Positions 7,053 to 64,000 of a DNA stretch of 64,000 nucleotides are shown one piece after another. The position numbers and the translations under genes are program-made. The notes beneath the pieces were generated by a model. It had not been told where the DNA came from. It saw nothing but the letters and a program-made list of their open reading frames with translations, and did no database searches. Positions within the stretch are counted from its first letter, which is position 1, and each line of letters begins with the position of its first letter. Origin of the DNA: Flavobacteriales bacterium (GTDB lineage Bacteria > Bacteroidota > Bacteroidia > Flavobacteriales > UBA7430); NCBI GenBank assembly GCA_965662265.1, contig CBFIGX010000003.1, positions 8,608-72,607 on the forward strand, given 5' to 3'.

Positions 7053-9236
7053 TTATTCTGAAACTACTATCTTTTCAATTATTCGGTGGTTGTCTACTTC
7101 AATACTTAAAGTATATACCCCAGATTTAATATTACCGTGAAGTTCTGATAAATGGAGTTTGTTAGTTCCTGTTGTCAGTGGCAAAGTTTTGTCAAAAATC
7201 ATAGAACCAATCATATTTTGAAGTGACAACTTAACGTCAGAATCTTCATTAAGATATAAATCGATTGTTGCGTCTCCTTTTGAAGGATTTGGATAGATAT
7301 CAATACCCACTTGTTGTGATTCGTCTATATTTAAATCAGTTATCTTACAGATTACAAAGTTATCTATATACAACCAATTACCATTAGACCCAGAAAATTC
7401 AAATTTAATTCTAACATTTTCATTACCTCTGTATGAATTTAGATTTACATTTTCCTCAGACCATTCATCATTTTCTGGAACAAAATCAAATAAACTTGTA
7501 GATGTGCCAATAGTAGATAATTCGTCAGAATCTAAATCAGCTCTTTTAGACCAAATTCTTCCGCAGTCATTAGAAATATAAATTGAAAGATTATCATTTG
7601 TAGCCAGTGTCTTTTTAGCGTATGCAATGTCAAAGTAGGCACGTATAGACTGACCGTTTGATATATTACTAAGATCAATACTAGGCGACGTTAATGTGTG
7701 AATCTCATCATTACTGTCAAAATCAGTTGTTCTAATTCGTATAGAAGCTGAATTAGTACCATTTACAGTTATAGGACTAACATCAGGGCTTGAAGCCGCA
7801 GTGGTTCTTTGCCAACTAATTGAATTCGTAGGTGCATCTATGGTCCAGTCAAGCTCATCATTAGTATTGATAGGGAATGAACTCGATTCAAACGTTTCAA
7901 AGTATGGAGTTATTGCACCGGACACAAAATCAGTAGTCATAATATGATTTGAGATGGTCGATGAAGAGGTTCCATCTGGACTTGTTACAGTAAGTGAAAC
8001 ATCCCATTCTCCTTCTTCGTCGAAAGAGACAATAGGGTTTTGTTCTGTAGACGTCGATGGTGAGCCATTCTCAAATTCCCACTGGTATGTAAGTTCTAAA
8101 TCGGTATTATAAGAAAGGTCATTAAAGCTAAATTCTGAACCACTACATCCTATAGTTTCATTAGTTGCAAAATGTGCTATAGGTTGGCAATTTAGGTCTT
8201 CATAGCCTTCATTTGTTCCAGTTTCTTCAAGATTTGCCTGGCTAACAAGAACAGACCTATATGTGTTTATTGCATTATGCATACGCTCAATTTGTCCAAT
8301 GGTAAACATGTTCATGCATTGATCGTCAGAATAGTCCATGTAATTCATAAACATTTCTCCATTTCCTTGAGGAATAGTTTGCCCTGGAGATGCAGAGCAA
8401 GTCTGTACATGATAAGGGAACGCTCCTCCGTTGGCATCACCATTCATATCACACACCCCATAGTTAGGCTCTTGTGATGTAGGTGTATCGTCAACATTGT
8501 CATCACCACAATCTTGATCTCCCCATATGTGAATTAGATTTAGCCAATGACCCACTTCATGGGTTAGCGTTCTTCCGACAGCACCATTGGCAGATTCTAT
8601 AGACCCACAATAATCATGTCTTAAAACTATTCCATCAGTATCTGTATCTTCCCATAATTGGTCAGGAAATTGAGCAAAACCCAACACCATTCCACCATCT
8701 ACAGAGAAGTTCTCTATTGATTTTACAACCCAAACATTTAAGTATTTATAAGGGTTCCACTGAACAAGTTCTTTAACGTTATTTCTGGCTTCATTGGTAA
8801 GGCTAGAATAGGTTCTGGTAACACCTTGGGTGCAATTTCCATCAGGATCTATTTTTGCCAGTCGAAACTCGATATTTGCAACACCTGCATAGGCAGCGAA
8901 TACAGAAGGAGTATTAGCAGTATCCGGATTTAGTCGTGCAAAATCTTCGTTGATTACTCTGATTTGATCTTCAATTTGAGCCAAAGAAACATTTTCTTCT
9001 CCACCTTCATGTATAACGTGAAACACTACTGGAATTACAAAGCTGTTATTCACATTAGTTTTACTCTCTTTTACATGCTTATTAAATGCTTCGAATCTTG
9101 CTTTAAGCCTTACTGCATCTTCTGGTCTGTCGGCATACATTTCATTTCTTTGTTCAACAGATCCGCACCAATTTTGGGCAGAGCTAGTATGTACTGTAGC
9201 CATAAGGCCAACAAATAATGCGATAATTTTCTTCAT
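7053..9236 (-). CDS. M43-family (cytophagalysin/pappalysin-like) zinc metalloprotease with a PKD-like domain and T9SS C-terminal sorting domain
   Basis: Signal peptide. HEVGHWLNLIH (HExxHxxxxxH). PKD-like YQWEFENGSPSTSTEQNP...VSLTVTSPDG. C-terminus IYPNPSKGDATIDLYL...GVYTLSIEV is typical of a T9SS CTD. Confidence 0.8.
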   Translation of the reverse strand: MKKIIALFVGLMATVHTSSAQNWCGSVEQRNEMYADRPEDAVRLKARFEAFNKHVKESKTNVNNSFVIPVVFHVIHEGGEENVSLAQIEDQIRVINEDFARLNPDTANTPSVFAAYAGVANIEFRLAKIDPDGNCTQGVTRTYSSLTNEARNNVKELVQWNPYKYLNVWVVKSIENFSVDGGMVLGFAQFPDQLWEDTDTDGIVLRHDYCGSIESANGAVGRTLTHEVGHWLNLIHIWGDQDCGDDNVDDTPTSQEPNYGVCDMNGDANGGAFPYHVQTCSASPGQTIPQGNGEMFMNYMDYSDDQCMNMFTIGQIERMHNAINTYRSVLVSQANLEETGTNEGYEDLNCQPIAHFATNETIGCSGSEFSFNDLSYNTDLELTYQWEFENGSPSTSTEQNPIVSFDEEGEWDVSLTVTSPDGTSSSTISNHIMTTDFVSGAITPYFETFESSSFPINTNDELDWTIDAPTNSISWQRTTAASSPDVSPITVNGTNSASIRIRTTDFDSNDEIHTLTSPSIDLSNISNGQSIRAYFDIAYAKKTLATNDNLSIYISNDCGRIWSKRADLDSDELSTIGTSTSLFDFVPENDEWSEENVNLNSYRGNENVRIKFEFSGSNGNWLYIDNFVICKITDLNIDESQQVGIDIYPNPSKGDATIDLYLNEDSDVKLSLQNMIGSMIFDKTLPLTTGTNKLHLSELHGNIKSGVYTLSIEVDNHRIIEKIVVSE

Positions 9237-16775: not shown

Positions 16776-17993
16776 ATGGCGTGTACGAATTGTTCAACAA
16801 CGAGAACCAATAGCCCTGGATGCCAAAGTAAAGGAGCTTGTAGTACCGGTAATTGTGGGAAAATGCCTGTGTTTAATTGGCTTTCAAACATGACTTTGCC
16901 AAACGGCCAAGAACCCTTCGATATATTAGAGGTACGCTTCAAAAACGGGAGAAAGGGTTTTTATAAAAATAAAAATAAACTTAACATTCATATGGGTGAC
17001 ACAGTTGCTGTAGAGAGCAGCCCAGGTCACGATATAGGCGTCATTTCTTTAAAAGGAGAGCTTGTTCGTCTTCAGATGCGCAAGAAAGATGTAGATATTG
17101 AAAGTGAGACTGTAAAAACATTATACAGACATGCTTCAGAAAAGGATATTGAGACATGGGAGGCTGCAAGATCTAGAGAAAAGGAAACTATGTACCGCGC
17201 CCGTGAAATAGCATCTAATTTAGATCTCGATATGAAAATCGGGGATGTAGAATTTCAAGGCGATAACATCAAAGCTATTTTTTACTACACATCTGATGGA
17301 AGAGTAGATTTTAGAGAGCTCATAAAAGTTATGGCTGAAGAATTCAAAGTACGCATCGAAATGCGTCAAATTGGAACTCGACAAGAGGCCCAGTTAATGG
17401 GAGGCATAGGCTCATGCGGTAGAGAGCTTTGTTGTAGTACTTGGTTAAATGATTTTAGATCTGTTACTACCGGTGCTGCTCGATATCAACAATTATCGTT
17501 AAACCCTCAAAAATTAGCTGGACAATGCGGAAAATTAAAGTGTTGTCTAAATTATGAGTTAGACATGTATGTCGAAGCATTAAAACCATTTCCTGGTTCT
17601 AATGTGAAATTAAAAACAAAAAAAGGTGATGCATTTATGCAGAAAATGGATGTTTTTAAAAAACAACTTTGGTATTCATATTATACAGAGCCATCAAATT
17701 TTATTCAATTAAATTTAGATAAAGTCCAGAAAATAGTTAGCCTTAACAAACAAAACACACTTCCGGACTCTCTAGAGATTTTTATAGAAACATCTCAGAA
17801 AGAATCTCCCAAGCATGATTATGAGAATGTTGTTGGTCAAGATAGTATTACCCGTTTTGACAATAGGTCTTCCAAGCGTTCAAATAAAAGACCCAATAAA
17901 AAAACACGACAGAAGGCTAGAAATATCGAATCAAAATCAGCTAACTCTCCAAAAAATGAATCTAAGAGAAAGCAGATAAATAAGCGTAAATAG
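16776..17993 (+). CDS. PSP1 domain protein (RicT/YaaT-like)
   Basis: Cys-rich N-terminus (CTNCSTT..PGCQSKGACSTGNCG), a PSP1-like core (IGTRQEAQLMGGIGSCGRELCCSTWL, CGKLKCCLNYE), and a Lys/Arg-rich tail. It follows holB, as yaaT does in Bacillus. Confidence 0.8.
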   Translation: MACTNCSTTRTNSPGCQSKGACSTGNCGKMPVFNWLSNMTLPNGQEPFDILEVRFKNGRKGFYKNKNKLNIHMGDTVAVESSPGHDIGVISLKGELVRLQMRKKDVDIESETVKTLYRHASEKDIETWEAARSREKETMYRAREIASNLDLDMKIGDVEFQGDNIKAIFYYTSDGRVDFRELIKVMAEEFKVRIEMRQIGTRQEAQLMGGIGSCGRELCCSTWLNDFRSVTTGAARYQQLSLNPQKLAGQCGKLKCCLNYELDMYVEALKPFPGSNVKLKTKKGDAFMQKMDVFKKQLWYSYYTEPSNFIQLNLDKVQKIVSLNKQNTLPDSLEIFIETSQKESPKHDYENVVGQDSITRFDNRSSKRSNKRPNKKTRQKARNIESKSANSPKNESKRKQINKRK

Positions 17994-18004
17994 TTACATT
18001 TTTA

Positions 18005-18499
18005 ATGAGAATAATTAAGATTTTAAAAATAGAATATCGTCAACGACTAATTATACCAACTATGGCTCTGCTATTTATGATATCATGCCAGCAGCCGTAT
18101 GTATATAATGCTTACAAACCTATTCCAAATACAGGATGGCACTTGAATGATACTATTACCTTTGAGGTATCAGGGGTCGAAAATGAACATATCCATGACT
18201 TTTTGATCGCCATTAGACATAATAATGACTACTTATATGCTAATATTTTTTTATACGCCAACGTATTAAATCCAAATGGCGAGGAAACAATAGACACTCT
18301 CCAATACTTGATGGCAGAACCTTCGGGTAGATGGTTGGGAACTGGAGTGGGGGAGATAAAACATCATCTTTTTTTGTATAAAACAAAACAGTCAATGGAT
18401 AGAGGACTGTACAAGTTTTCTCTTGTTCATGGGATGAGAGATAGCGTATTAACTGGTATAGAAGATATAGGCTTTAGAATTGAGAAATCTCACGAGTAA
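18005..18499 (+). CDS. gldH: Gliding-motility lipoprotein GldH-like
   Basis: Lipobox LFMISC, the right size, and a position between the PSP1 gene and PBP1A that matches my recollection of the Flavobacterium johnsoniae gldH locus. Motif-level recognition only. Confidence 0.6.
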   Translation: MRIIKILKIEYRQRLIIPTMALLFMISCQQPYVYNAYKPIPNTGWHLNDTITFEVSGVENEHIHDFLIAIRHNNDYLYANIFLYANVLNPNGEETIDTLQYLMAEPSGRWLGTGVGEIKHHLFLYKTKQSMDRGLYKFSLVHGMRDSVLTGIEDIGFRIEKSHE

Positions 18500-20790
18500 T
18501 GGCTATAAAAAAGAACTTAATAACATGGTTTATACGATTATTTTGGATGGCTATCTTAGTGCCCATTGCTACTATTACTCTGGGCGTATGGAGTGCTTCA
18601 ATGGGTTGGTTTGGACCATTACCCACTTTCGAAGAACTTGAAAACCCCAAACAAAATTTAGCCACTGAAATATATGCTTCAGATGGCGTACTTTTAGGTA
18701 AGTTCTTTTATGAAAATAGATCTCCAGTTACATATAATGAATTATCTCCACATTTAGTTAATGCACTTATTGCAACAGAAGATGAGCGCTACAGAAATCA
18801 TTCTGGTATTGATGTGAAATCTCTTGCTAGAGCCGTTTATGGAGCTTTAACAGGAAATTCTGCAGGAGGAGGGTCTACTCTTACGCAACAACTATCTAAA
18901 ATGCTCTTTACAGATATATCTTATGATAGAGGAACGGGCATATTTAGTAAGGTAAAATATATTGTTGAGAGAATCACTCAAAAATTTAAGGAATGGGTTA
19001 TTTCAGTAAGATTAGAGCGCAATTTTACTAAAGATGAAATTGTAACAATGTACCTCAACAAATTTGACTTTTTATATTTAGCTGTTGGAATAAAGTCGGC
19101 CGCAAAAATTTATTACAATACAACTCCAGCCAATTTAAATATTGAACAAGCTGCTGTATTGGTAGGAATGGCAAAAAACCCTTCTTTATATAATCCTAAG
19201 AGGTTCCCAGAAAACTCTATGAATAGGAGGAATGTTGTCTTGGGTCAGATGTATAGAAATAATTTATTAACGAAGTCCTCATTAGACTCCTTATCCTCAC
19301 TCCCTATAGAACTAGACTTCAAGCGAACAAATCATAATGATGGATTAGCACCTTATTTTAGAGAATACCTTCGTAAACATATGAAGTCTTGGCTTCAAGA
19401 AAATAAAAAACCTGATGGCACACCATATAATTTATATTCAGACGGTTTGAAAATTTATACCACAATTGATTCGCGTATGCAGAAATATGCTGAAGAAGCT
19501 GTTGCCACACACATGCCTATTCTTCAAGATCAATTTTATAATCATTGGGACGGAGATGGTGAAGAATACGCTAACGCACCTTTTGATATGGAGTTACGAC
19601 CAGGGCAAGTAGATACCATATTACTAACTTCTTTAAAAAGATCTGAACGTTATAGAAAATTGCGTGTTGCAAATGCTTCAGAGAATCAAATTAACACAGC
19701 ATTTAATACACCAACAAAAATGAATGTGTTTACTTGGAATGGAGGAGTCGACACAATAATGTCTCCAATGGATTCCATTTTACACTATAAATATTTACTT
19801 CAAACAGGGATGATGTCTATGGATCCACATACAGGTTATATAAAAGCCTGGGTAGGTGGAATAGATCATCATTACTTCAAATATGATCATGTTAAAGAAG
19901 GTAAGCGGCAAGTAGGTTCTACATTTAAACCTTTTGTTTATGCAACTGCTATCGATCAACATAACTACTCGCCGTGTATGACTGTTCCTAACATACAGGT
20001 TATATTCGAAAAGGAAACATGGGGCTTAGAAGAAGATTGGGTGCCTCAAAATTCTAGTAAGAAATACGGTGGTGTGCTAAACTTAAAGGAGGCGTTAGCA
20101 AATTCTGTTAACACTGTGTCAGCTTATATGATGAAGCAAGTGGGACCTAGAAAGGTACGAAGTATGGCTAGGGCTATGGGATTAAAGTCAAGGATTCCAC
20201 CAGCGCCGTCAATTTGTTTAGGAACTCCAGATGTGTCCGTATATGAAATGGTTGGAGCATACTCAACATTTGCTAATAAAGGAGTTTACACCACCCCACT
20301 TTTTTTAAACAGAATAGAAGATAAAAATGGCGTTATATTAGATCAATTTAGTCCGTTTACCAAAGAGGTGCTAAGCGAAGAAAAAGCTTATGTTTTACTA
20401 GATCTCATGCAAGGAGTCACAACTAAAGGATCTGGGGCTAGACTAAGATGGCGTTATGGGTTTAAGAATCAGATTGCAGGTAAAACAGGAACAACTCAAA
20501 ACCAATCTGATGGTTGGTTTATGGGAATAGTACCTAACTTGGTTACTGGAGTTTGGACAGGCGCAGAAGACCGTGCTGTTCATTTCAGGTCTATAACGCT
20601 TGGTCAAGGAGCGAATATGGCACTGCCAATTTGGGCTGAATTTATGACAAGAGTTTACAAGGACAAAGATTTAGGTATTTCATTAGCTAATTTTGATGAA
20701 CCAAACACTCTATCAATAGAGTTAGATTGTGATAACTTTATAAAAGAAACTATTGATTTTGACAACTCCGAAGGAGATGAAGAATTTTAA
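18499..20790 (+). CDS. mrcA: Bifunctional penicillin-binding protein 1A (transglycosylase/transpeptidase)
   Basis: GT51 motifs EDERYRNHSGID and GGSTLTQQL. Transpeptidase motifs STFKPFVY (SxxK), SVN and KTGTT. Its start overlaps the gldH stop (TAATG). Confidence 0.9.
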   Translation: MAIKKNLITWFIRLFWMAILVPIATITLGVWSASMGWFGPLPTFEELENPKQNLATEIYASDGVLLGKFFYENRSPVTYNELSPHLVNALIATEDERYRNHSGIDVKSLARAVYGALTGNSAGGGSTLTQQLSKMLFTDISYDRGTGIFSKVKYIVERITQKFKEWVISVRLERNFTKDEIVTMYLNKFDFLYLAVGIKSAAKIYYNTTPANLNIEQAAVLVGMAKNPSLYNPKRFPENSMNRRNVVLGQMYRNNLLTKSSLDSLSSLPIELDFKRTNHNDGLAPYFREYLRKHMKSWLQENKKPDGTPYNLYSDGLKIYTTIDSRMQKYAEEAVATHMPILQDQFYNHWDGDGEEYANAPFDMELRPGQVDTILLTSLKRSERYRKLRVANASENQINTAFNTPTKMNVFTWNGGVDTIMSPMDSILHYKYLLQTGMMSMDPHTGYIKAWVGGIDHHYFKYDHVKEGKRQVGSTFKPFVYATAIDQHNYSPCMTVPNIQVIFEKETWGLEEDWVPQNSSKKYGGVLNLKEALANSVNTVSAYMMKQVGPRKVRSMARAMGLKSRIPPAPSICLGTPDVSVYEMVGAYSTFANKGVYTTPLFLNRIEDKNGVILDQFSPFTKEVLSEEKAYVLLDLMQGVTTKGSGARLRWRYGFKNQIAGKTGTTQNQSDGWFMGIVPNLVTGVWTGAEDRAVHFRSITLGQGANMALPIWAEFMTRVYKDKDLGISLANFDEPNTLSIELDCDNFIKETIDFDNSEGDEEF

Positions 20791-23715: not shown

Positions 23716-25818
23716 TTAATTTACAATAATTCTTAAAGTCTGCGTGTAAGATTCTGATTCATAAATAAGCCAATACGAACCCGATTTTATATTTTGTTTG
23801 AGACTATGTAATGAGATGCTGTGAGAGCCAGAGCTATAATGGTTTATTTTGCGCCCTATTTCACGACCTAGAAGGTCGTATAGGCTTAGTTTAATTTTAG
23901 AATTAGTAAGCACTTCAAATGAAATCAAAGAATTTCCATCACTTGGATTAGGATAAATATTAAGATCAGGACCTTTCATTTTTTGTGATTCTATATCTAA
24001 TAAGGGCACACCAAATTGAATATGGTCAATGTAGAGATAATTACCGCCAGAACCACTAAACTCAAATAAAACCTGAACTTCATCATTCCCAACCCAACTA
24101 TTAAGTGACAACCTTTCTGTTTCCCACTCTTCACTAGAAGGTTCAAATGGGAGCAAAAAGTTGTTTGGGTTAGTTTGAAGATCTTCGGAATCTTTCGATA
24201 GTCTCTTTTGCCAAGTTGTACCACAGTTACCTGATATTTTAACAACAAGTTCATCATCAGTTGCTGAATTTCTTTTCACGTAGGCATAATCAAAATAGAG
24301 GTAACTTGGTGAGGAAACATTTGATAAGTCGAAAATAGGTGAATATAAATTTCTTGTCTTATCATCATCAAAATAGAGGCTCCTAATTCTCAAAGATCCA
24401 TCAGAGTTAGTAGAGCTTAAATTGTCCCATTGCCATGTCTCACCATCGTTATCGTCGGAGATATACCATGCATCATTTGGGCTTGTTGATGATAAGAAAT
24501 CAGAATTAGTGAATTTATATTCGGTAGGCGCAACAATACTAAGATCTGCATCCTGAACATGTATGCTATTTTCCATAACTTTAGTTGAAGGACCTCCTTC
24601 GGTAGTAATTGTTAGAGTCGTTGTATAGTCTCCAGCCGAAGTGTATATAACAGATGGATTGGCATCTGTTGATGTACTTGGAACTCCGCCCTCAAATTCC
24701 CACAGATAGCTATATGCAGAATCGTAATTGTAAGAGAGGTTACTCCAATAAACAGGAACGTTTGAACAACTTATTACAGATTGTGGTTCAAAGTCAACAT
24801 AGGCAAGACAATCCGGTTGATTGTAGTTTTCGTGAGTTCCTGTAAGCCATAAGTTTTCATCTGTCCATAAATTAGTTCTTGCAGCATTTGCATATATATA
24901 ACCCACTTCAAGTGCTGCCCTCATTCGGTTTTTTTGCCCCTCCGAGTACATTTTGCCACAAGAAGAATAGTCCATAAAATTTTGAACGTTATCAAGACTA
25001 CCACAAGTATTTTGATTTAGATTACAGCCTAGATTAGATCCAATCGTGTTTGGTGTATCATCTACATTGTCGTCCATATCACAATTTTCCTCTAGATAAT
25101 TATCATTTGTGCTCCCCCAGGTATGTTTTAAATTAAGGTAGTGTCCTATTTCGTGCGTTAGTGAGCGTGATGAAAAATTACCACCATTAGAGGCTCCTAT
25201 ACTTCCAAACTGACTTGACCTGATTACAATTCCTGCATTTAAATCGTTGTTTGGAGCTGCTCCAGGGTAATAGGAATAACCTCCTGCACCACTAGCTATA
25301 TTGTCAACAACCCATATATTTAAATACATTCTAGGATCCCACCTTACTATGTCTTTTACATTTTCTCCAGCATCGTGAGTTAGTATGCTATAATTTCGGG
25401 TAATTCCTTTTGTACAGTTTCCATCAGGATCTAGATTTGCTAGTTTAAATTTGACGCCTATATTGGCTATTTGAGCTTCAAAGTTACTGATGATTTGTGA
25501 TGTGTCAGAATTATTTTTGGTGAAGTCTTCATTTATAATCCGCATAGCATCATGAATTTGCTGATCCGAAATGTTGTTATTGTCATTGGAGTATATGACG
25601 TGAATTACTACTGGTATAGTGTATATTTCGTCATTTTTTGACCAGCCTGAAGCAAGAAGAGCATTGATTTGATTTTCTAACTTCCTTTGATTCAAAATAA
25701 GTTGAGGCTCATGTTCTTGGGCCAACTTTACCATTTCAACTGTACCACAAGTCCTATATTCTTGACCAAAAGAAACGAAGTAGGTTATTAGTAGAAAAAT
25801 AAATGAATTTACTTTCAT
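23716..25818 (-). CDS. M43-family zinc metalloprotease with T9SS C-terminal sorting domain (paralog of 7053..9236)
   Basis: HEIGHYLNLKH. PKD-like YLWEFEGGVPSTSTDANP...TLTITTEGG. C-terminus IYPNPSDGNSLISF...GSYWLIYES. I chose the ATG at 25818 (MKVNSFIFLLITYFVSFGQ). Confidence 0.8.
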   Translation of the reverse strand: MKVNSFIFLLITYFVSFGQEYRTCGTVEMVKLAQEHEPQLILNQRKLENQINALLASGWSKNDEIYTIPVVIHVIYSNDNNNISDQQIHDAMRIINEDFTKNNSDTSQIISNFEAQIANIGVKFKLANLDPDGNCTKGITRNYSILTHDAGENVKDIVRWDPRMYLNIWVVDNIASGAGGYSYYPGAAPNNDLNAGIVIRSSQFGSIGASNGGNFSSRSLTHEIGHYLNLKHTWGSTNDNYLEENCDMDDNVDDTPNTIGSNLGCNLNQNTCGSLDNVQNFMDYSSCGKMYSEGQKNRMRAALEVGYIYANAARTNLWTDENLWLTGTHENYNQPDCLAYVDFEPQSVISCSNVPVYWSNLSYNYDSAYSYLWEFEGGVPSTSTDANPSVIYTSAGDYTTTLTITTEGGPSTKVMENSIHVQDADLSIVAPTEYKFTNSDFLSSTSPNDAWYISDDNDGETWQWDNLSSTNSDGSLRIRSLYFDDDKTRNLYSPIFDLSNVSSPSYLYFDYAYVKRNSATDDELVVKISGNCGTTWQKRLSKDSEDLQTNPNNFLLPFEPSSEEWETERLSLNSWVGNDEVQVLFEFSGSGGNYLYIDHIQFGVPLLDIESQKMKGPDLNIYPNPSDGNSLISFEVLTNSKIKLSLYDLLGREIGRKINHYSSGSHSISLHSLKQNIKSGSYWLIYESESYTQTLRIIVN

Positions 25819-25883
25819 ATCGTTATTATATTTATGATACAAATCTACTAAATTAGTGCGGACAAACATATTAATGCTCTACC

Positions 25884-53744: not shown

Positions 53745-54983
53745 TCAGTTTTTCTTGTGCCAAAGAATTGTTTTTATAGTTTTTTTTGAGTTGATGAATT
53801 GCACATAGTATAAGTCATCTTTAAGGAAGCTAAAGTCAACTGAGGTCTCACCATTTAATTTAATTACGTCAACTAATTTACTGTCAGTAGAGTATATGTT
53901 TATTTGATCGACCATTTTATTTTCCTTCCAGTTTATAAAGCCTGACGATGGATTAGGAAATGATTTGAAATCTGAACTTTTGTCATTTATTAGAAGGTTT
54001 TGAATTTGAATTATATACTCATCCGTGTAACAGCCATCACTTGCTATCAAATTGATCTCATAGTCGCCTGTATATCCATTAAGATTAACAATGAGTGTGT
54101 CGTTAAAGTCGAGAATGTTTTGAGTGATTCCCAGCCAATTAGTTTCAGTGAAATTTAATGACTCATTATAGAATATGATGCTGTCACTCATTATTTCATA
54201 GCTTGCAATAGCTTCTACCTCGGTAAGGAATGATGTTACAGTATTAGTGGTTACTTCGTTTGCATATTTATTCAAACTATCTGCTGTGTAACTGTCAATT
54301 AAGTTGGTATAGTAAACTTCTTGAGCAAGGTCTTCATATAGTATATTGTAAATAACCGACGCAGCAAGATAGGAGCCTTCATAGCTAGGGTGAGACCCAT
54401 CTGTGGCGTAAAGGTTTATGCTCGGTAAGTTGGCTCTAATATTTGCCCACGCGTTTCCAACTGGAGCAATTAATGCCTCATTTGTCTGAGCCATTTCGGT
54501 ATAACTCTCAATTAGTCTGTTTTGCATTCCCTCGTAAGTACATAATGGGGCATAAAATTCACAATTTCCCTGATCTCCATTTTCTCTTCCCCAAGTCGTA
54601 AAAAAAACGGGTTTAGTACAGGAATAATTTTCACGAATGATTTCACATAATTCCATAGCATATGGATAAACATCAGTAGCAACTTGATTTGGAGGAAATG
54701 AAGGCATTTGACTTTGCTCTTGAAGAATAACATAATCCCAATTTTCTGAATTTATAAGATTCGTTAGAGTTGAATTTGCTACATGTTGCATTAAAGTAGA
54801 GCCTCCGGGTGTGTGTGTTTGAAATACAAGAGTGTTGCCATTAGTCTCTGCAATAGATTGAATAATTGAACCTAGGTTGTTGTATGCCGTATAGCTGTTG
54901 CCAATGAAAAGTGCTTTTACATCCGTTTGAGCTGATACTATACTACAATGAATACAAAAAAGTAGAACTATTTTTTTGATCAT
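53745..54983 (-). CDS. Secreted protein with an SGNH/DUF4886-like N-terminal domain and T9SS C-terminal sorting domain
   Basis: Signal peptide. ALFIGNSYTAYNNL (GNSY block) and DGSHPS. The C-terminus FPNPSSGFINW...YYVQFIN is T9SS CTD-like. Confidence 0.6.
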   Translation of the reverse strand: MIKKIVLLFCIHCSIVSAQTDVKALFIGNSYTAYNNLGSIIQSIAETNGNTLVFQTHTPGGSTLMQHVANSTLTNLINSENWDYVILQEQSQMPSFPPNQVATDVYPYAMELCEIIRENYSCTKPVFFTTWGRENGDQGNCEFYAPLCTYEGMQNRLIESYTEMAQTNEALIAPVGNAWANIRANLPSINLYATDGSHPSYEGSYLAASVIYNILYEDLAQEVYYTNLIDSYTADSLNKYANEVTTNTVTSFLTEVEAIASYEIMSDSIIFYNESLNFTETNWLGITQNILDFNDTLIVNLNGYTGDYEINLIASDGCYTDEYIIQIQNLLINDKSSDFKSFPNPSSGFINWKENKMVDQINIYSTDSKLVDVIKLNGETSVDFSFLKDDLYYVQFINSKKTIKTILWHKKN

Positions 54984-57687: not shown

Positions 57688-57706
57688 GGAATAATCAATA
57701 ATCACT

Positions 57707-57714
57707 CAAAAATA
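57707..57714 (-). promoter_or_regulatory. -7 promoter box TATTTTTG for the DUF3108-like gene
   Basis: TAnnTTTG match on the minus strand, 20 nt upstream of the ATG at 57687. Confidence 0.4.
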
Positions 57715-57744
57715 AAAAAAGCTCTCAAATTTCAGAGCTTTTCT
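57714..57744. other. Orphan terminator-like hairpin between divergent genes
   Basis: AAAGCTCT-caaatttc-AGAGCTTT with an A-run before it and a T-run after. No upstream convergent gene on either strand. Confidence 0.4.
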
Positions 57745-57782
57745 AGCAATTCATCCCCCTAGATACTTCCTTTTTGCACAAG

Positions 57783-57790
57783 TAGTTTTG
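57783..57790 (+). promoter_or_regulatory. Candidate -7 box TAGTTTTG for the LTD / kinase / nucleotidyltransferase operon
   Basis: The only exact TAnnTTTG match I found on the + strand upstream of 57965. It implies a leader of about 170 nt that is very AT-rich. Confidence 0.3.
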
Positions 57791-57964
57791 TAAAAACGTG
57801 TTTTTTATTACCAATTTCAAATCTTATGCCATAGTAATCATTATTCTATACATAAATCTATAAATGTATCTATTTAGATAAATTGAGTATTGTTATACAT
57901 ATTTTAATTGGTCATTATTAGTAAATTAGATTTCATATATAATTTTATCTAAATAATTAATGTA

Positions 57965-60643
57965 ATGAGTCTGGTTTATTATAAATTAAATTCAATAATT
58001 GTTCTTATATTTCTTAATGTTATCTCGTCTTATTCTCAAGCAGTTTGGAGTGAAAATTTTGAGGAATATACTATTGGATCTGGGTGTCTAGGTTCTGATA
58101 CTGGCGTTTATTATGGAGGTGACTATCCCCATTCAATTAGTAAGTGGAATCTTGTGATCGATAGCGCATCATTTTTTTCTGCGAACACACATTTAAAAAC
58201 AGTTCAAATTAATTCGTCTACATATTTAGAAAGTAGACGAGTAGGTGAAGAGGTTATATTTATAACCGAGGCAATACCTATTTCTGGCTATACAGATGTT
58301 TGGGTTGATCTTTTGGTCTCAGAAGTTGGAGCTCATGATGGTGGCGATTTTATAAAAGCATTTTACCAAATTGATACAGGAAGTGAACAGTTGTTCACTT
58401 ATAGTGGATCTTTATATGATGATTTTACGTCAAATAAAATGAGCACCTATGGATTAAATGGTGATTCTTTAAGAGTTATAGTTAAGATGTTGAACAACGC
58501 GAATGATGAAAAACTAAGAATCGATAGTGTTAATGTATATGGCGTAGAAGGTTCAGGATCTATTGTAATTTCTGAGTTGTATTATAAAGATGATAATTCT
58601 GGATTGAGCTTTATAGAGTTACGTAATGTATCCAATCAATCTATAAACTTGAGCCAACACATATATTACGTTTCAATAAAGAATGGTGTGACTTGGTTTA
58701 ATTATCAGTTACAGGGAAGTATTGCCTCTGGAGCAATTATGACTATTAGTAAAGATTCAACAACATTTATAAATGAGTATGGTTTCCCACCAGATTTGGT
58801 TTTTGATTCATTATTTAACCATGGTTTAGATTCTGTTTTATTGTATTCAGGACACACAAATGAATCAGGCGAAATTATTGATATATATGGTCAAGCTAAT
58901 CAAACTGATTTCATCCAAAATTGGAATTACTCAAACATTAGAGCAGTCCGTGATGAGTCGATAACTCGTGGGAGTAGAGCATATGATAGTCTTCAGTGGA
59001 TTATTCAGATAGGGGATGTTGCCGATGCCAGCCCTGGCTCAAAAGAAAATGAATTTCGATATAGTTTAGGTTACTGGAGGCCATATAATATACCTCCATC
59101 AGAGCAAAGTTTTCAAAATTCTGTATGCATCGATCAAGGCGAATTATGGGTTAATTATAATATTGCATGTAAAGAATTACAAATACTTAATAACGGATCT
59201 CTATTCTTAAGCCCAGGTAGTGCTATCACTGTTATAGATAGTGTGGTTTGTGATGGGAATTTGTCCTTGTTGTCAGACTCACTTTTATCTTCTTTTATTG
59301 TCGGGGATACAATAATAGGGAACTTATCTTATACCTTTAATTTGTCTGATAGTTGGCATTTAATTTCAGCACCTGTAATTAATCAAAGTATTTCGGAGTT
59401 CATTCTATCATCAACAAATTCTATTGCTTTATCATCTTCAACAAATAATTACGCAGTTTCTTCGTATAATTCTACTAATCAGTATTGGCAGTATATCCAC
59501 AATGGTTTAGGCTTTACGCCTAATATATCTATTGCTGATTCTGAAAATTTTGAAAGTGGTAATGGCTATGCTATGATGCGCTCTTCGGTTGGTCCAGTGT
59601 CATTTTATGGAGAAAATAATAATAGTGACATAACTCAAGATTTAGTTGCTTCCGAATGGAATTTACTTGGAAATCCGTATCCTAGCTATGTAAGTATAAA
59701 TTCTAACACCCACACAGAAGAAAATATTCTAGATGAAAGCGGGTTGGCTATTGATAATTTGTATGAAGGCATTTATATATGGGATTCTGAGTCTAATACA
59801 TATAAAATTATCAATCAATTAAGCCCTCCGAGCTATTTAAGTCCTGGACAGAGCTTTTTTGTTAAAGCCAGTGCGGAGAATTTAAATTTTTCGATTACTA
59901 GAAATATGCAGTCACATAATTCAGGTAACTCGTCGCAAAAGCAATATAGTGAATATGCCAGTATCTTTGTGGAAGCACAAACAACTCATCATCAAAGTTC
60001 AACATCAATACAATTTAATCCTTTGGGTTCTGATGGCTTAGACATAGGCTATGATGCTGCGATCTGTCCGGTTGGTGGTTCGGATTTTTTTATAGGCACG
60101 CATTTAGTTGATGGTTCTTTTGATAGTATTGATTTCTCCATACAATGTTTAGGAGACTTAAAAGAAGCAAAGAATTTAAGTATACCATTGAATATTTGGT
60201 CTAGTAGTTTACAGTTGGTAGAATTTACTATTAGGTATGACTATGTTTCATCGGATAGAACTCTTTTTTTTGTTGATGATTTAATGGGCACAAAAGCTCA
60301 GTTAACACCTGAAAGACAAGTTTTTTGTTTGTGGGTAGACAGTAGTGCCTATAATACAGATCGGTTTTATATTGAAATAGACTCAGCAAAAGTTCCAATA
60401 TATGATAGTGATCTGCCCCCAATATCACTACATTATAATCGCTATAAAAATTCTTTACAGATTCATAATCCAAAAGGTCAAGACTACATTATTTACGTAT
60501 ATGTTATGTTAGGTCGTTTAATTAATGTAAATCAAATTAAAAACAATCATAATGAAGTAATACTTCCTGAACTAGATGGAGCGATACATGTTGTTAGCCT
60601 TGTTGATAAGGCAGGTTTATTGACTTATAAAATTATTAAATAA
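57965..60643 (+). CDS. Large secreted protein with a lamin-tail-domain (LTD)-like segment and a possible T9SS C-terminal domain
   Basis: Signal peptide MSLVYYKLNSIIVLIFLNVISSYSQA. The LTD-like opening IVISELYYKDDNSGLSFIELRNVSNQSINLS resembles INE...EFIELyN...dLsg. The C-terminal roughly 80 aa are beta-rich and CTD-like but lack the PNP motif. Confidence 0.7.
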   Translation: MSLVYYKLNSIIVLIFLNVISSYSQAVWSENFEEYTIGSGCLGSDTGVYYGGDYPHSISKWNLVIDSASFFSANTHLKTVQINSSTYLESRRVGEEVIFITEAIPISGYTDVWVDLLVSEVGAHDGGDFIKAFYQIDTGSEQLFTYSGSLYDDFTSNKMSTYGLNGDSLRVIVKMLNNANDEKLRIDSVNVYGVEGSGSIVISELYYKDDNSGLSFIELRNVSNQSINLSQHIYYVSIKNGVTWFNYQLQGSIASGAIMTISKDSTTFINEYGFPPDLVFDSLFNHGLDSVLLYSGHTNESGEIIDIYGQANQTDFIQNWNYSNIRAVRDESITRGSRAYDSLQWIIQIGDVADASPGSKENEFRYSLGYWRPYNIPPSEQSFQNSVCIDQGELWVNYNIACKELQILNNGSLFLSPGSAITVIDSVVCDGNLSLLSDSLLSSFIVGDTIIGNLSYTFNLSDSWHLISAPVINQSISEFILSSTNSIALSSSTNNYAVSSYNSTNQYWQYIHNGLGFTPNISIADSENFESGNGYAMMRSSVGPVSFYGENNNSDITQDLVASEWNLLGNPYPSYVSINSNTHTEENILDESGLAIDNLYEGIYIWDSESNTYKIINQLSPPSYLSPGQSFFVKASAENLNFSITRNMQSHNSGNSSQKQYSEYASIFVEAQTTHHQSSTSIQFNPLGSDGLDIGYDAAICPVGGSDFFIGTHLVDGSFDSIDFSIQCLGDLKEAKNLSIPLNIWSSSLQLVEFTIRYDYVSSDRTLFFVDDLMGTKAQLTPERQVFCLWVDSSAYNTDRFYIEIDSAKVPIYDSDLPPISLHYNRYKNSLQIHNPKGQDYIIYVYVMLGRLINVNQIKNNHNEVILPELDGAIHVVSLVDKAGLLTYKIIK

Positions 60644-60654
60644 TAAATATTAAA

Positions 60655-61782
60655 GTGAGTTATCTATCTGTTCCCATTCAAAATAAATATTTGTTGTGGT
60701 TTCAATCATCTCATAAGTTCTTGTGTGTTAATAAACAAACATATCAGTTGTTCATCGAATGTGTTGAAAGACAGGACTTATCATTTACAAGATCGTATTG
60801 TTTAGACACACTATTATTAACTAATAAACAAACAGATCATTTAATTGACATAATAGTCTTTTTATTTAGTGAAATGTTATGTGATAAGGATGCCGATGAC
60901 ATTGTCAAATACCAAGAAGTATCCTTGACAAAATCATTGGTAACCATGTGCTATAGATTTGGAGATGTAATCACAAATATTTGTTATTCAAACACAACAA
61001 TTTTTGATCAAATTCACCCTAAGTTTAGCCATTTATCAGTAGATAGAACAGATAAAAAAATATCAGATTTAATTCATTTGTCGTATGATAACAATCATTA
61101 TTCTATTTATTTTAATCATCGTTTTGTAGGCTATTGGCATAAAGTAAATTCTGACCAGTTTATGGGTAAGTTGTCCATGGTTTTGTTAAACTCATTTTAT
61201 AAAACTCAGACAAAGGATTGGGCAGCTACCTTTCATGCATCTTCGATTTACAAAAAAAAGGATGCTATCACTTTTATAGGAGATTCTGGCGCGGGTAAAA
61301 GCACAGCTGTTTCAATATTAGTAGCGAATGGATATCATTTACTTGCTGATGATTTCGTTCCTATGTCTTCAAAAGGTCAACTATGTTCTTTTCCAGCAGC
61401 ATTATCTATAAAAACATCTAATCGAATAAATTTTAATGCACTATTCCCTAATGCATCTTGGTCGCAAGATCGTGTTAAGCTTCATAAAGTTAAATACAAA
61501 TATTTATACCTTCAAAACTCTAGCCCTCCGAAGACTATAGAGAAGAAATGTAAAGTAATCATTCATATTAAGTATGAAGAAAAAATAAAAGGACGCTATA
61601 AAGTACTTCGCGCGGATGAGTTACTTGAATTATTAATTCCACAAGCATGGTTGTCAAGAGATCCAAGTAAAGTTAAAGTATTTATGAAGTCTATTTCTTT
61701 GTGCAAATGCTATAGATTAACATACTCCGATCCTGATGACTTAGTGTCGATTATTAGTCAAATAGAATCTGATGACCTATAA
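60655..61782 (+). CDS. HPr kinase/phosphorylase C-terminal-domain-like P-loop kinase with a possible PqqD/RRE-like N-terminus
   Basis: FHASSIYKKKDAITFIGDSGAGKSTAVSILVANGYHLLADDFV parallels the HprK catalytic core (GxSGxGKS...G-H-x-L-v-ADD). GTG start 11 nt after the upstream stop. Confidence 0.7.
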   Translation: MSYLSVPIQNKYLLWFQSSHKFLCVNKQTYQLFIECVERQDLSFTRSYCLDTLLLTNKQTDHLIDIIVFLFSEMLCDKDADDIVKYQEVSLTKSLVTMCYRFGDVITNICYSNTTIFDQIHPKFSHLSVDRTDKKISDLIHLSYDNNHYSIYFNHRFVGYWHKVNSDQFMGKLSMVLLNSFYKTQTKDWAATFHASSIYKKKDAITFIGDSGAGKSTAVSILVANGYHLLADDFVPMSSKGQLCSFPAALSIKTSNRINFNALFPNASWSQDRVKLHKVKYKYLYLQNSSPPKTIEKKCKVIIHIKYEEKIKGRYKVLRADELLELLIPQAWLSRDPSKVKVFMKSISLCKCYRLTYSDPDDLVSIISQIESDDL

Positions 61783-62887
61783 AGAGACTCGTCAACTTAT
61801 ATGTGATTGCCTAGCCTTATCAATAAATCCCAGATTATTGTTTCAGCTTAAGCATAAGCTAAAATCAAAGCAAATAAATTGGACTAGAGTAGTGTCTTTA
61901 GCCTCTAAGCACTATGTTTTAATAACACTATATCAAATCTTAAAGAAATTTGAATTACATCAATTCCTTCCTTCCGATTTAGTCGTTTACCTTGAAGATT
62001 TATCGTCATGGAATGCAACAAGAAATAAACATCTTTTGATTCAATTAAAAGAGATTAATTGTTTGTTAAATAAACATCATATCGTACCTATTTTTCTCAA
62101 AGGATCAGCACATATTATTAGTAATCTTTATCATACTTCTTGTGAACGAATGATTGGCGATATTGATTTTATTGTGCCTGAAATCGACGTAATAAAAACA
62201 GTTAATTTACTGTTATTAAATGGCTATATCTCTACCACAGATCCCAACATATATAATTTTCAACTAGCAAGACACTACCCTCGACTAATTAGCGCAGATA
62301 AGATTTTTGCAGTTGAAGTTCATAAATCAATCATTAAAAATATAAATACGAAGCATATTAATTATGATACAATTGTGAAGCAAAGCAAAGTAATAAATGC
62401 ATTTAGAATTCCTTCCATTGATCATCTATTACTGCACAATATGATCAATACTCAAATTAATGATGAAGCTTATTGTTACGGTGATATTAATTTGAGGCAG
62501 CAATATGATTTTTTATTGTTATCTGACTTACATGACTTAGCCTCAACAGTCAATGCTGGGTCTTTTGTGAGAAATGAGTTTCTTGCATATGTACATAAAA
62601 CAGAAGGCTTGTTTTCTAAGCAACTAATTACTAAGAGTGATCAGAATATTACTCTTAAATATATAGTTGCTACAAGGCAGTTATTTGGAAAGTACATGCC
62701 TAATTTGATAATGTTTTTGACTCAAACTCTCTATTTATCCATAACATCGTATCGATATGTAAGGAAGCTTTGTGAAATTATTATGTCTAAAAATAAAATT
62801 AATAAAAGCTATCTTAAACTTAGGCAAGTAGGTTATCTAAAAGCTGTTATTTCTCGTTTGTTTAATAGGTCGTATGTTGATATATAA
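61772..62887 (+). CDS. Nucleotidyltransferase family protein (uncharacterised NTP_transf_5/PF14907-like)
   Basis: IFLKGSAHIISNLYHTSCERMIGDIDFIVPEIDV matches the lKG...Y....R...DiDllV pattern of that family as I recall it. The ATG overlaps the kinase 3' end by 11 nt. Confidence 0.65.
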   Translation: MTYKETRQLICDCLALSINPRLLFQLKHKLKSKQINWTRVVSLASKHYVLITLYQILKKFELHQFLPSDLVVYLEDLSSWNATRNKHLLIQLKEINCLLNKHHIVPIFLKGSAHIISNLYHTSCERMIGDIDFIVPEIDVIKTVNLLLLNGYISTTDPNIYNFQLARHYPRLISADKIFAVEVHKSIIKNINTKHINYDTIVKQSKVINAFRIPSIDHLLLHNMINTQINDEAYCYGDINLRQQYDFLLLSDLHDLASTVNAGSFVRNEFLAYVHKTEGLFSKQLITKSDQNITLKYIVATRQLFGKYMPNLIMFLTQTLYLSITSYRYVRKLCEIIMSKNKINKSYLKLRQVGYLKAVISRLFNRSYVDI

Positions 62888-63879: not shown

Positions 63880-64000
63880 ATGAATGATTTACTTTGTGCT
63901 GTAGGAGAAATTTTCCAAGCCTCATTCCAAGTCCTAGAACTTGCAGGCCAAATGCCAAATATTATACTTTCATTAGCAGGGACAGGGGCTTTAGCATTTT
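63880..64000 (+). CDS. Hypothetical protein, 3' end outside the window
   Basis: An ATG at 63880 opens a frame that runs to the window edge (MNDLLCAVGEIFQASFQVLELAGQMPNIILSLAGTGALAF), preceded by a promoter-like box. Confidence 0.4.
   Translation, partial: MNDLLCAVGEIFQASFQVLELAGQMPNIILSLAGTGALAF

Follow-up and report, generated by a model that had tools for sequence, protein, structure and literature searches.

Gene order at the locus

We analysed a 64-kb stretch of DNA from a Flavobacteriales bacterium (contig CBFIGX010000003.1, positions 8,608 to 72,607), hereafter the window, numbered from its first letter. Two overlapping open reading frames (ORFs) encode a predicted P-loop kinase and a predicted nucleotidyltransferase. 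The kinase appears to carry a recognition element (RRE) of the type used in the biosynthesis of peptides that ribosomes make and that are modified after translation (RiPPs). The gene directly upstream encodes a putative adhesin-like type IX secretion system (T9SS) cargo. The coordinates are collected in Table 1.

The ORF listing bears out an earlier note on this DNA, which had placed kinase and nucleotidyltransferase motifs in these two ORFs: the kinase gene, with a GTG start, contains FIGDSGAGKSTAVSILVANGYHLLADDFV, and the transferase gene, with an ATG start, contains FLKGSAHIISNLYHTSCERMIGDIDFIVP. At the junction, GAT GAC CTA TAA of the kinase is read against ATG ACC TAT AAA of the transferase. 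The translational coupling that the note had proposed from this 11-nt overlap gains support from relatives, as the overlap is exact in 59 of 67 related loci of Flavobacteriales and Bacteroidales. The cargo stop lies 12 nt before the kinase start, and no convincing terminator was found between the cargo, kinase and transferase genes. Scans for sigma-70-type and TAnnTTTG promoters were uninformative; a single TAnnTTTG motif at 57783, upstream of the cargo, is not above chance. The G+C content of the locus, about 30%, is ordinary for the window.

Table 1 Features of the locus in window coordinates; assignments are predictions on the basis given.
Feature	Position (nt)	Strand	Residues (aa)	Basis or remark
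Intergenic region upstream of cargo	57706..57964	+		Sole room for a promoter serving cargo, kinase and transferase; no conserved small ORF
Putative RemA/RemZ-family T9SS cargo, 892 aa	57965..60643	+		Family alignment, profile A5
RemA-like conserved module of cargo	59201-60409	+	~413-815	Family alignment
Putative type-A C-terminal sorting domain of cargo		+	~816-892	Family alignment, K889
Predicted RRE-fused HprK/PEPCK-fold P-loop kinase, 375 aa	60655..61782	+		Motifs, AlphaFold2 model, Foldseek
Putative RRE of kinase	60661-60876	+	3-74	AlphaFold2 topology, family profile
Middle domain of kinase		+	96-190	
Kinase domain		+	191-375	GDSGAGKST and LADDFV
Kinase stop/transferase start overlap, 11 nt	61772..61782	+		Translational coupling
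Predicted PF14907 (NTP_transf_5) Pol-beta-fold nucleotidyltransferase, 371 aa	61772..62887	+		Catalytic KG(S)...GDID...E.H

A putative RRE-fused kinase of the HprK/PEPCK fold

The first ORF of the pair is a predicted P-loop kinase with the fold of HPr kinase/phosphorylase (HprK/P) and ATP-dependent phosphoenolpyruvate carboxykinase (PEPCK). It contains GDSGAGKST and HLLADDFV, at positions that are invariant across the family. An invariant M1, N-termini that align across 28 homologues, and the sister locus L086 (L numbers denote the loci compared here) all back the GTG start. The AlphaFold2 model (predicted local distance difference test (pLDDT) 87, predicted template modelling score 0.85) shows three strands and three helices at residues 3-74, a linker, a middle domain and a P-loop domain. 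Searched against the PDB with Foldseek, the model retrieves PEPCKs at E ~1e-6 and HprK/P at E 2.5e-4. The P-loop GxSGxGKS, the h-h-ADD segment and the fold are shared with both enzymes, while the N-terminal domains differ from those of HprK/P and there is no HPr context.

The HprK-like character that the earlier note had read from the motifs is thus upheld by motifs and fold, whereas its suggested link to the HPr-rel-A system is not. Pfam Hpr_kinase_C (PF07475) scores 19.5 bits against a gathering threshold of 33.3 (E 7e-4) and covers residues 206-241 only. The best NCBIfam match over the kinase domain, TIGR04352 (HprK_rel_A), reaches 48.2 bits (E 7e-13, residues 191-369), and 61.5 bits for a Tenacibaculum homologue; TIGR04355 (HprK_rel_B) reaches 18.1 bits. 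The curated cut-off of both models is 200. Because the kinase falls below every one of these cut-offs, it is not a member of the HPr-rel-A equivalogs. In that system the PqqD-like domain is, we presume, encoded by a separate gene, unlike the fused arrangement of the window kinase. By profile searches the kinase belongs to a family of its own, which has a putative PqqD-like RRE fused to the kinase and numbers about 600 clusters at 50% identity; an exhaustive hidden Markov model (HMM) search returned ~597 clusters at E <= 1e-30. A word-indexed search returned 28 clusters from Tenacibaculum and other Bacteroidota, all named "hypothetical".

The fused N-terminal domain was overlooked in the earlier reading of the kinase. 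In the AlphaFold2 model the strands 3-8, 11-16 and 21-26 are followed by the helices 27-39, 42-52 and 57-74 (pLDDT 82-92). This beta3-alpha3 order, a winged helix-turn-helix with a three-stranded sheet ahead of three helices, is that of an RRE. The best PDB match of the family N-terminal profile is TfuB1 (6jx3_B), an RRE protein of a lasso peptide system, at E 0.023. The Pfam PqqD model (PF05402) is matched by 14 of 39 family N-termini (best E 7e-4), and one homologue weakly matches the model of the PqqD-family chaperone WgkC (E 0.0065). A predicted structure and marginal sequence scores together suggest that the kinase has a fused PqqD-like RRE, for which the topology is good support and the sequence weak support.

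The nucleotidyltransferase

The second ORF matches PF14907 with 95.5 bits against a threshold of 31.2 (E 5e-27, residues 34-252), as the earlier note had anticipated; of the families it had named for HMM searches, this one is above threshold, and the HprK-related models fall below theirs. The family alignment contains invariant K110, G111, G129, D130, E182 and H184, and D132 is present in at least 90% of members. The AlphaFold2 model (pLDDT 88) has a Pol-beta nucleotidyltransferase core, and its Foldseek neighbours are MenT1 (8an5), JHP933, ANT(2'')-Ia, LnuA and TglT (6j7q), with a weaker match to FKRP (E ~0.2).

The two enzymes are co-conserved, although the pairing is not strictly obligate. 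The transferase adjoins the kinase in 66 of 82 kinase-anchored loci; of the others, about 4 are truncated at a contig end and about 11 have no transferase gene. In L010, L018, L020, L026, L030, L038, L050, L053, L078 and L079, mpl follows the kinase directly and leaves no room for a transferase. The kinase abuts mpl in ~11 of 82 loci (~13%), where the transferase is therefore dispensable.

The upstream gene encodes a putative RemA/RemZ-like cargo

The gene upstream of the kinase had been labelled an LTD gene. The LTD match lies in the variable N-terminal part of the protein (residues 197-310) and is sub-threshold, at 32 bits against 34.3. The C-terminal ~470 residues correspond to the module found in RemA and RemZ of Flavobacterium johnsoniae, the former being a gliding adhesin, reportedly studied by Shrivastava et al. 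in 2012, and the latter its homologue. Residues ~410-891 of the window cargo align to the C-terminal ~480 residues of essentially every protein encoded upstream of the peptide gene described below (blastp E 1e-20 to 1e-43 between the window cargo and family members), and the counterpart in L008 is 34% identical across its full length. Profile A5, whose first row is the window protein, matches RemZ (8gl8_D) at E 1.7e-37 and RemA (8gl6_D) at E 2e-34. Both matches span positions 5-471, which is the whole module. Taken alone, the window cargo gives no PDB match by phmmer, and no match to TIGR04183 or PF18962 at E <= 1. The type-A T9SS C-terminal domain (CTD) model PF18962 is matched by 35 of 36 aligned family members, with which the C-terminus of the window cargo aligns throughout; K889 is the invariant lysine. 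From this alignment the protein is a putative RemA/RemZ-family, adhesin-like T9SS substrate.

The homology to RemA and RemZ (8gl6, 8gl8; PMC10994853) is at profile level and includes the type-A CTD, whereas the N-terminal part is LTD-like in the window cargo and a lectin domain in RemA. The conserved CTD lysine contacts PorV in the structure of RemZ with the translocon (PMC10994853), and K889 is its counterpart. In the literature searched, we found no link of RemA-type proteins to a small peptide, a kinase or a transferase.

Two further observations concern the cargo family. A second RemA-like gene lies ~7 kb downstream of the kinase-transferase pair in L008, in two frames (17881-19302 and 19308-19649) that indicate a frameshift or sequencing error, and no peptide gene follows it. 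In Tenacibaculum loci, the gene immediately upstream of the RemA-like cargo repeatedly encodes a secreted phage-tail-collar protein (PF07484, 101 bits; L012 6819-7511); ORFs of ~218-230 aa are also found there in L013, L014, L016 and L017.

A small peptide gene lies between cargo and kinase in most relatives

The neighbourhoods of two distant kinase homologues contain ORFs of 55-70 aa between large Por_Secre_tail proteins and the kinase, and with an HMM built from such ORFs, most loci prove to have this ORF immediately upstream of the kinase. In its product, of 50-60 aa, a leader that resembles a signal peptide and is strongly conserved (ITRKEALKKIG.YGKYAALTALGTYLILNPKKAQA) is followed by a core of ~10 aa, xSPExPGxGF. 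The consensus runs from an M-K-rich n-region through I[TS]R[KR][ED]A[LI]KKIG.YGKYAALTALGTY[LM]ILNP[KQ]KAQA to the core. Among 184 parsed peptides, 175 have AQA ahead of the core and 161 have a core of 10-11 aa; Ser occupies core position 2 in 183, 151 end in GF, and 103 (56%) have Gln at +1. The leader has the anatomy of a signal peptide, with a basic n-region, an h-region of ~15 residues, a Pro and AxA. The +1 Gln fits the Bacteroidetes Q-rule for substrates of signal peptidase I (PMC5837995).

At 90% identity, the peptide family numbers at least 7,379 clusters. Neither Pfam nor NCBIfam has a model for it, the matches obtained being weak and Tat-target-like (E 0.02-0.05), and every source names it "hypothetical". 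Two odd-length cluster members, P0047 and P0293, look like clustering or gene-call artefacts and were set aside. Several variants were observed. Tandem peptide gene pairs precede the kinase in L095, L109, L117, L118, L125, L139, L161 and L163 and have longer cores, either of 37 aa (the canonical decapeptide followed by RINTGALEKIIDQQNEDIYEGIGDMYD) or of 17-18 aa (such as SSPNSGLIAPGADGFFD). Bacteroidales peptides (L004, L032) have ~30-aa cores with two S-P-x-D-P repeats. Decayed or truncated copies also occur: a leaderless remnant upstream of the kinase (L065 9799-9894) and a 29-aa fragment downstream of it (L067 11478-11567, L084 2116-2205).

A scan of GTDB species representatives gave 188 loci, of which the best 80 were examined. 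The scan used one peptide pattern, and the window's own kinase is not matched by it (DWAATFHASS); genes in the loci were called by simple longest-ORF heuristics. The 80 loci come from Flavobacteriales (Polaribacter, Tenacibaculum, Kordia, Flavobacterium and further families) and Bacteroidales (Draconibacterium, Mariniphaga). The full order in these relatives is RemA-like cargo, 50-60 aa precursor, kinase and transferase, with median gaps of 19 nt from cargo to peptide and 67 nt from peptide to kinase. At least 4 kb upstream of the kinase is available in 62 loci, which we regard as informative. The order cargo-peptide-kinase is present in 36 of them, and 8 have a cargo or peptide gene within 6 kb that is not adjacent. 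A cargo followed by the kinase with no intervening peptide, as in the window, is found in 3, the kinase alone, with or without transferase, in 14, and peptide and kinase with no cargo called in 1.

By gene order and family membership, the window pair is the putative enzyme half of an undescribed four-gene cassette of marine Bacteroidota. What the earlier note had taken for a minimal system is a reduced form of this cassette. Its guess at the substrate, either a very small unannotated peptide or the secreted protein encoded upstream, anticipated what the relatives show.

The gap between peptide and kinase contains a strong terminator-like hairpin (median z -3.2; z < -2 in 74% of loci), laid out as an A-run, a GC stem such as AAAACCTCGA...TCGAGGTTTT, and a T-run. 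Examples are L064 (9922-10000), L027, L015, L017, L055, L043 and L079. A hairpin after the peptide gene suggests that cargo and peptide form one transcription unit, the kinase and transferase being expressed by read-through or separately. The position of the cassette is fixed in Polaribacter and Tenacibaculum, with trkAH on one side and mpl on the other; where these loci have mpl, the window has a DUF6427 gene.

Loci were also collected around the peptide gene itself, as the best 80 of more than 485 metagenome matches, a sample biased to Polaribacter- and Tenacibaculum-like peptides. A RemA-like gene precedes nearly every peptide gene in these loci. The leader and the core Ser are equally conserved in peptide genes adjacent to and distant from a kinase. 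In one genome, a kinase locus that lacks the peptide (L018) is accompanied by a second locus that has it (L057). The basic unit is therefore adhesin plus peptide; the kinase, alone or with the transferase, is encoded beside some modules and plausibly acts in trans. Modules of RemA-like cargo and peptide were also seen at the end of Polaribacter starch-utilisation loci (L087 5827-8171, L088 5828-8180), which contain SusD/SusE and a T9SS-tailed alpha-amylase and have no kinase or transferase nearby.

The window lacks the peptide gene and retains constrained enzymes

A six-frame scan with a 63-sequence peptide HMM (--max, E up to 100) covered the window, L001, which extends 10 kb to its right, L008 and other peptide-less loci. 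The best score in the window was only E 2, in line with the earlier statement that it holds no obvious precursor. The only small ORFs conserved between the window and L086, L008, L006 and L009 are a DUF3098 ORF and an unrelated 53-aa ORF near purD; the cassette locus itself has no other conserved small ORF. The window, L001, L086 and L008 share the arrangement cargo-kinase-transferase.

Ratios of non-synonymous to synonymous substitution (dN/dS) against L086, a sister locus 82% identical to the window, are 0.21 for the cargo and 0.26 for both the whole kinase and the transferase, compared with 0.07-0.16 for neighbouring housekeeping genes. Within the kinase, the ratio is 0.15 for the RRE, 0.44 for the linker, 0.28 for the middle domain and 0.26 for the catalytic domain. 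Judged from these ratios, the window kinase, and chiefly its RRE, is under purifying selection despite the missing peptide gene. That the RRE is the most constrained domain of the kinase argues that it still binds something.

Comparison with known systems

The closest parallel is found in lasso peptide clusters, where tailoring kinases of the PadeK/ThcoK type and PsmN show the same pairing of an HprK-fold kinase with an "uncharacterised nucleotidyltransferase" (PMC8498205). There, HprK-type kinases phosphorylate a Ser of the lasso precursor, and the nucleotidyltransferase adds hexose to the phosphate (PMC8498205). In contrast, the cassette of the window and its relatives has no cyclase, protease or ABC exporter, and a putative RRE is fused to the kinase itself. 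Phosphorylation would fall on the Ser at core position 2 rather than on the C-terminal residue. The leader resembles a signal peptide of the kind that signal peptidase I removes, and the cassette occurs in Bacteroidota, linked to T9SS adhesins. A similar logic, in which a dedicated partner gene follows the cargo, is seen for type-B CTD cargo with its cognate PorP/SprF gene immediately downstream (PMC12618676). The cargo of the window family has a type-A CTD instead, and its partner is a signal-peptide-bearing peptide of 50-60 aa, not an outer-membrane beta-barrel.

A proposed route from precursor to modified peptide

We propose, with a probability of about 0.5, that the two ORFs encode tailoring enzymes of a RiPP-like peptide system genetically tied to RemA/RemZ-type T9SS adhesins. 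The PqqD-like RRE of the kinase would bind the n-region and leader of the precursor (I[TS]R[KR]EA[LI]KKIG...) in the cytoplasm, and the HprK-fold domain would phosphorylate the invariant Ser at core position 2. The PF14907 transferase may then elaborate the phosphoserine by placing a glycosyl or nucleotidyl group on the phosphate, as is reported of PsmN in pseudomycoidin. The leader would double as a Sec/Tat-type signal peptide. Its AQA cleavage site and the +1 Gln suggest that the modified precursor is exported and cut by signal peptidase I, which would free a modified peptide of ~10 residues in the periplasm to act with the RemA-like adhesin module. The precursor for the window enzymes would be encoded beyond the 64 kb, and they would modify it in trans. 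Such trans action is the most likely arrangement, given that in relatives cargo-peptide modules are as a rule dispersed, with no kinase nearby.

A number of observations weigh against this proposal. We found no peptide gene in the window or the flanking 10 kb on its right, nor in L086 or L008, so the substrate is unseen for the window organism. The peptide gene is also far commoner than the kinase: a kinase lies directly downstream in ~8 of 51 peptide-anchored metagenome loci of at least 5 kb, and is present for 19 of 62 peptide copies with at least 1.5 kb of downstream sequence. The primary partner of the peptide would then be the adhesin, and the peptide may need no modification. The N-terminus of the window kinase alone gives no match to PqqD (PF05402), and two near-invariant RRE residues are changed in it (N20 to H, Y22 to F), which may reflect a diverged ligand. 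The Tat-like motif of the peptide n-region is RK in 181 copies and RR in only 4, which leaves Sec and Tat undivided as the export route. A signal peptide serving as a RiPP leader is unusual, and we found no paper describing one; modification of the precursor in the cytoplasm would, moreover, have to compete with its export. Our searches of the literature on PF14907, Bacteroidota RRE-kinase fusions, signal-peptide or Tat RiPP leaders, and RemA partners found no description of the cassette.

Alternative explanations

It is conceivable, if unlikely, that the kinase and transferase modify the upstream RemA-like adhesin or another protein, the cargo being the substrate in the window lineage. The window, L086 and L008 have the cargo directly followed by the two enzyme genes with no peptide gene, all three genes are under purifying selection, and in about three quarters of informative loci the kinase has a cargo gene of this family directly upstream of it or at most 6 kb away. 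However, the RRE fold is a module for binding short peptides, and the N-terminus of the cargo is unlike the conserved peptide leader. The cargo is Sec-exported, and a modification would have to come before export. Moreover, the majority form has a peptide gene between cargo and kinase, and the 14 loci with a lone kinase have no cargo nearby. The absence of the peptide gene from the window and its flank could also mark an evolutionary remnant, in which the precursor was lost and the enzymes, without a substrate, are decaying or idle. The decayed peptide in L065, the loci without a transferase, and the dN/dS of kinase and transferase, higher than that of the housekeeping genes, fit such a history. 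We consider it distinctly unlikely, since neither ORF is shortened and the catalytic motifs of both are intact, the sister species keeps the arrangement at dS ~0.35-0.45, and the RRE is the most constrained part of the kinase.

In type VII toxin-antitoxin systems, such as MenA3/MenT3 and TakA/TglT, a kinase neutralises a nucleotidyltransferase toxin. The tight coupling of the two window genes, and the presence of MenT1 and TglT among the best structural neighbours of the transferase, would suit a toxin-antitoxin or defence module of this kind, unrelated to the adhesin. Such a module seems very improbable: PADLOC gave no match for either protein, PF14907 is not the MenT/AbiEii family, and the chromosomal slot from trkH to mpl is stable across genera. 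Kinase-only loci exist, where an antitoxin alone would be useless (a toxin alone is expected to be lethal). The kinase also has an RRE domain, and the pair consistently adjoins peptide and adhesin genes. A dispersed but otherwise ordinary lasso cluster, with cyclase (C) and protease (B/B2) elsewhere in the genome, would account for the enzyme pair, as the tailoring of lasso peptides is known to involve HprK-type kinases and transferases of the PF14907 type (PMC8498205). We regard this as extremely improbable. As the earlier note had stated for the window, no lasso core enzyme is evident: its 10 largest ORFs (among them every ORF of at least 450 aa) include no Asn-synthase-like protein. The note had also named a placement of related pairs beside a lasso cyclase or protease as a case against its reading, and the Pfam-annotated neighbourhoods L001-L005 and L086-L089 contain no Asn_synthase, transglutaminase-type or separate PqqD gene. 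The leader of the peptide is signal-peptide-like. To close the macrolactam of a lasso, a core needs ~13 aa or more and an Asp/Glu at position 7-9; the core of ~10 aa, which starts with Gln/Ala/Ser-Ser-Pro and has no Asp/Glu at 7-9, cannot form one.

Two further candidates were rejected. Sugar salvage, by an AmgK/MurU-like kinase and NDP-sugar pyrophosphorylase beside mpl, does not fit a transferase of the Pol-beta rather than the Rossmann-type fold, nor a kinase with an RRE. The adjacency to mpl is convergent and confined to Polaribacter and Tenacibaculum, and the window neighbour is DUF6427. PorU-type transpeptidation onto the N-terminal amine of the peptide is disfavoured because the +1 Gln of 56% of peptides, in keeping with the Q-rule (PMC5837995), would cyclise.

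Other genes in the window

The 53-aa ORF near purD (MNDLLCAVGEIFQASFQVLELAGQMPNIILSLAGTGALAFCMKVATAEKNICE) starts at 63880 on the forward strand and runs past the window end at 64000; it is complete in L001 (13226-13387). Unannotated and without a Pfam family, it lies between the DUF6427 gene and purD, and is kept in L086 (84%) and in L008, L006 and L009 (47-55%). The ORF probably encodes a genuine small membrane protein that adjoins the cassette through synteny and does not belong to it. The window also encodes two paralogous proteins with an M43 peptidase, PKD and T9SS C-terminal domains (7053-9236 and 23716-25869, both on the reverse strand) and a 412-aa T9SS-tailed protein (53745-54983), which point to a T9SS-rich chromosome.

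Significance

To our knowledge, the pairing of such a kinase with such a transferase is known only as an accessory of lasso clusters in Firmicutes and Proteobacteria. In marine Flavobacteriia and Bacteroidales it occurs without lasso machinery, has a putative peptide-binding domain of its own by fusion, and is tied to a family of type-IX-secreted, RemA/RemZ-like adhesins. The peptides that go with it form a very large and highly conserved family, which has so far gone by the name "hypothetical" without a Pfam or NCBIfam model.

It is possible, and we suggest this tentatively, that the peptides form an unrecognised class of ribosomal peptides in Bacteroidota, in which the leader is both the handle for the RRE and a signal peptide, and the modified peptide is a dedicated partner of RemA-type adhesins. 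The core Ser would be phosphorylated and then nucleotidylated or glycosylated in the cytoplasm, and signal peptidase I would release the peptide. The mature peptide might serve in the periplasm or at the surface as a ligand, cap or anchor element of RemA-type gliding adhesins. Such a class, if real, would connect type IX secretion and gliding motility with chemistry of the RiPP kind.

If the proposed model holds, it would describe a new route to modified peptides, in which the signal peptide is the RiPP leader, and would explain why "orphan" kinase-transferase pairs such as that of the window persist. RemA-type adhesins, whose anchoring and mobility are poorly understood, would gain a dedicated small partner that is genetically testable.

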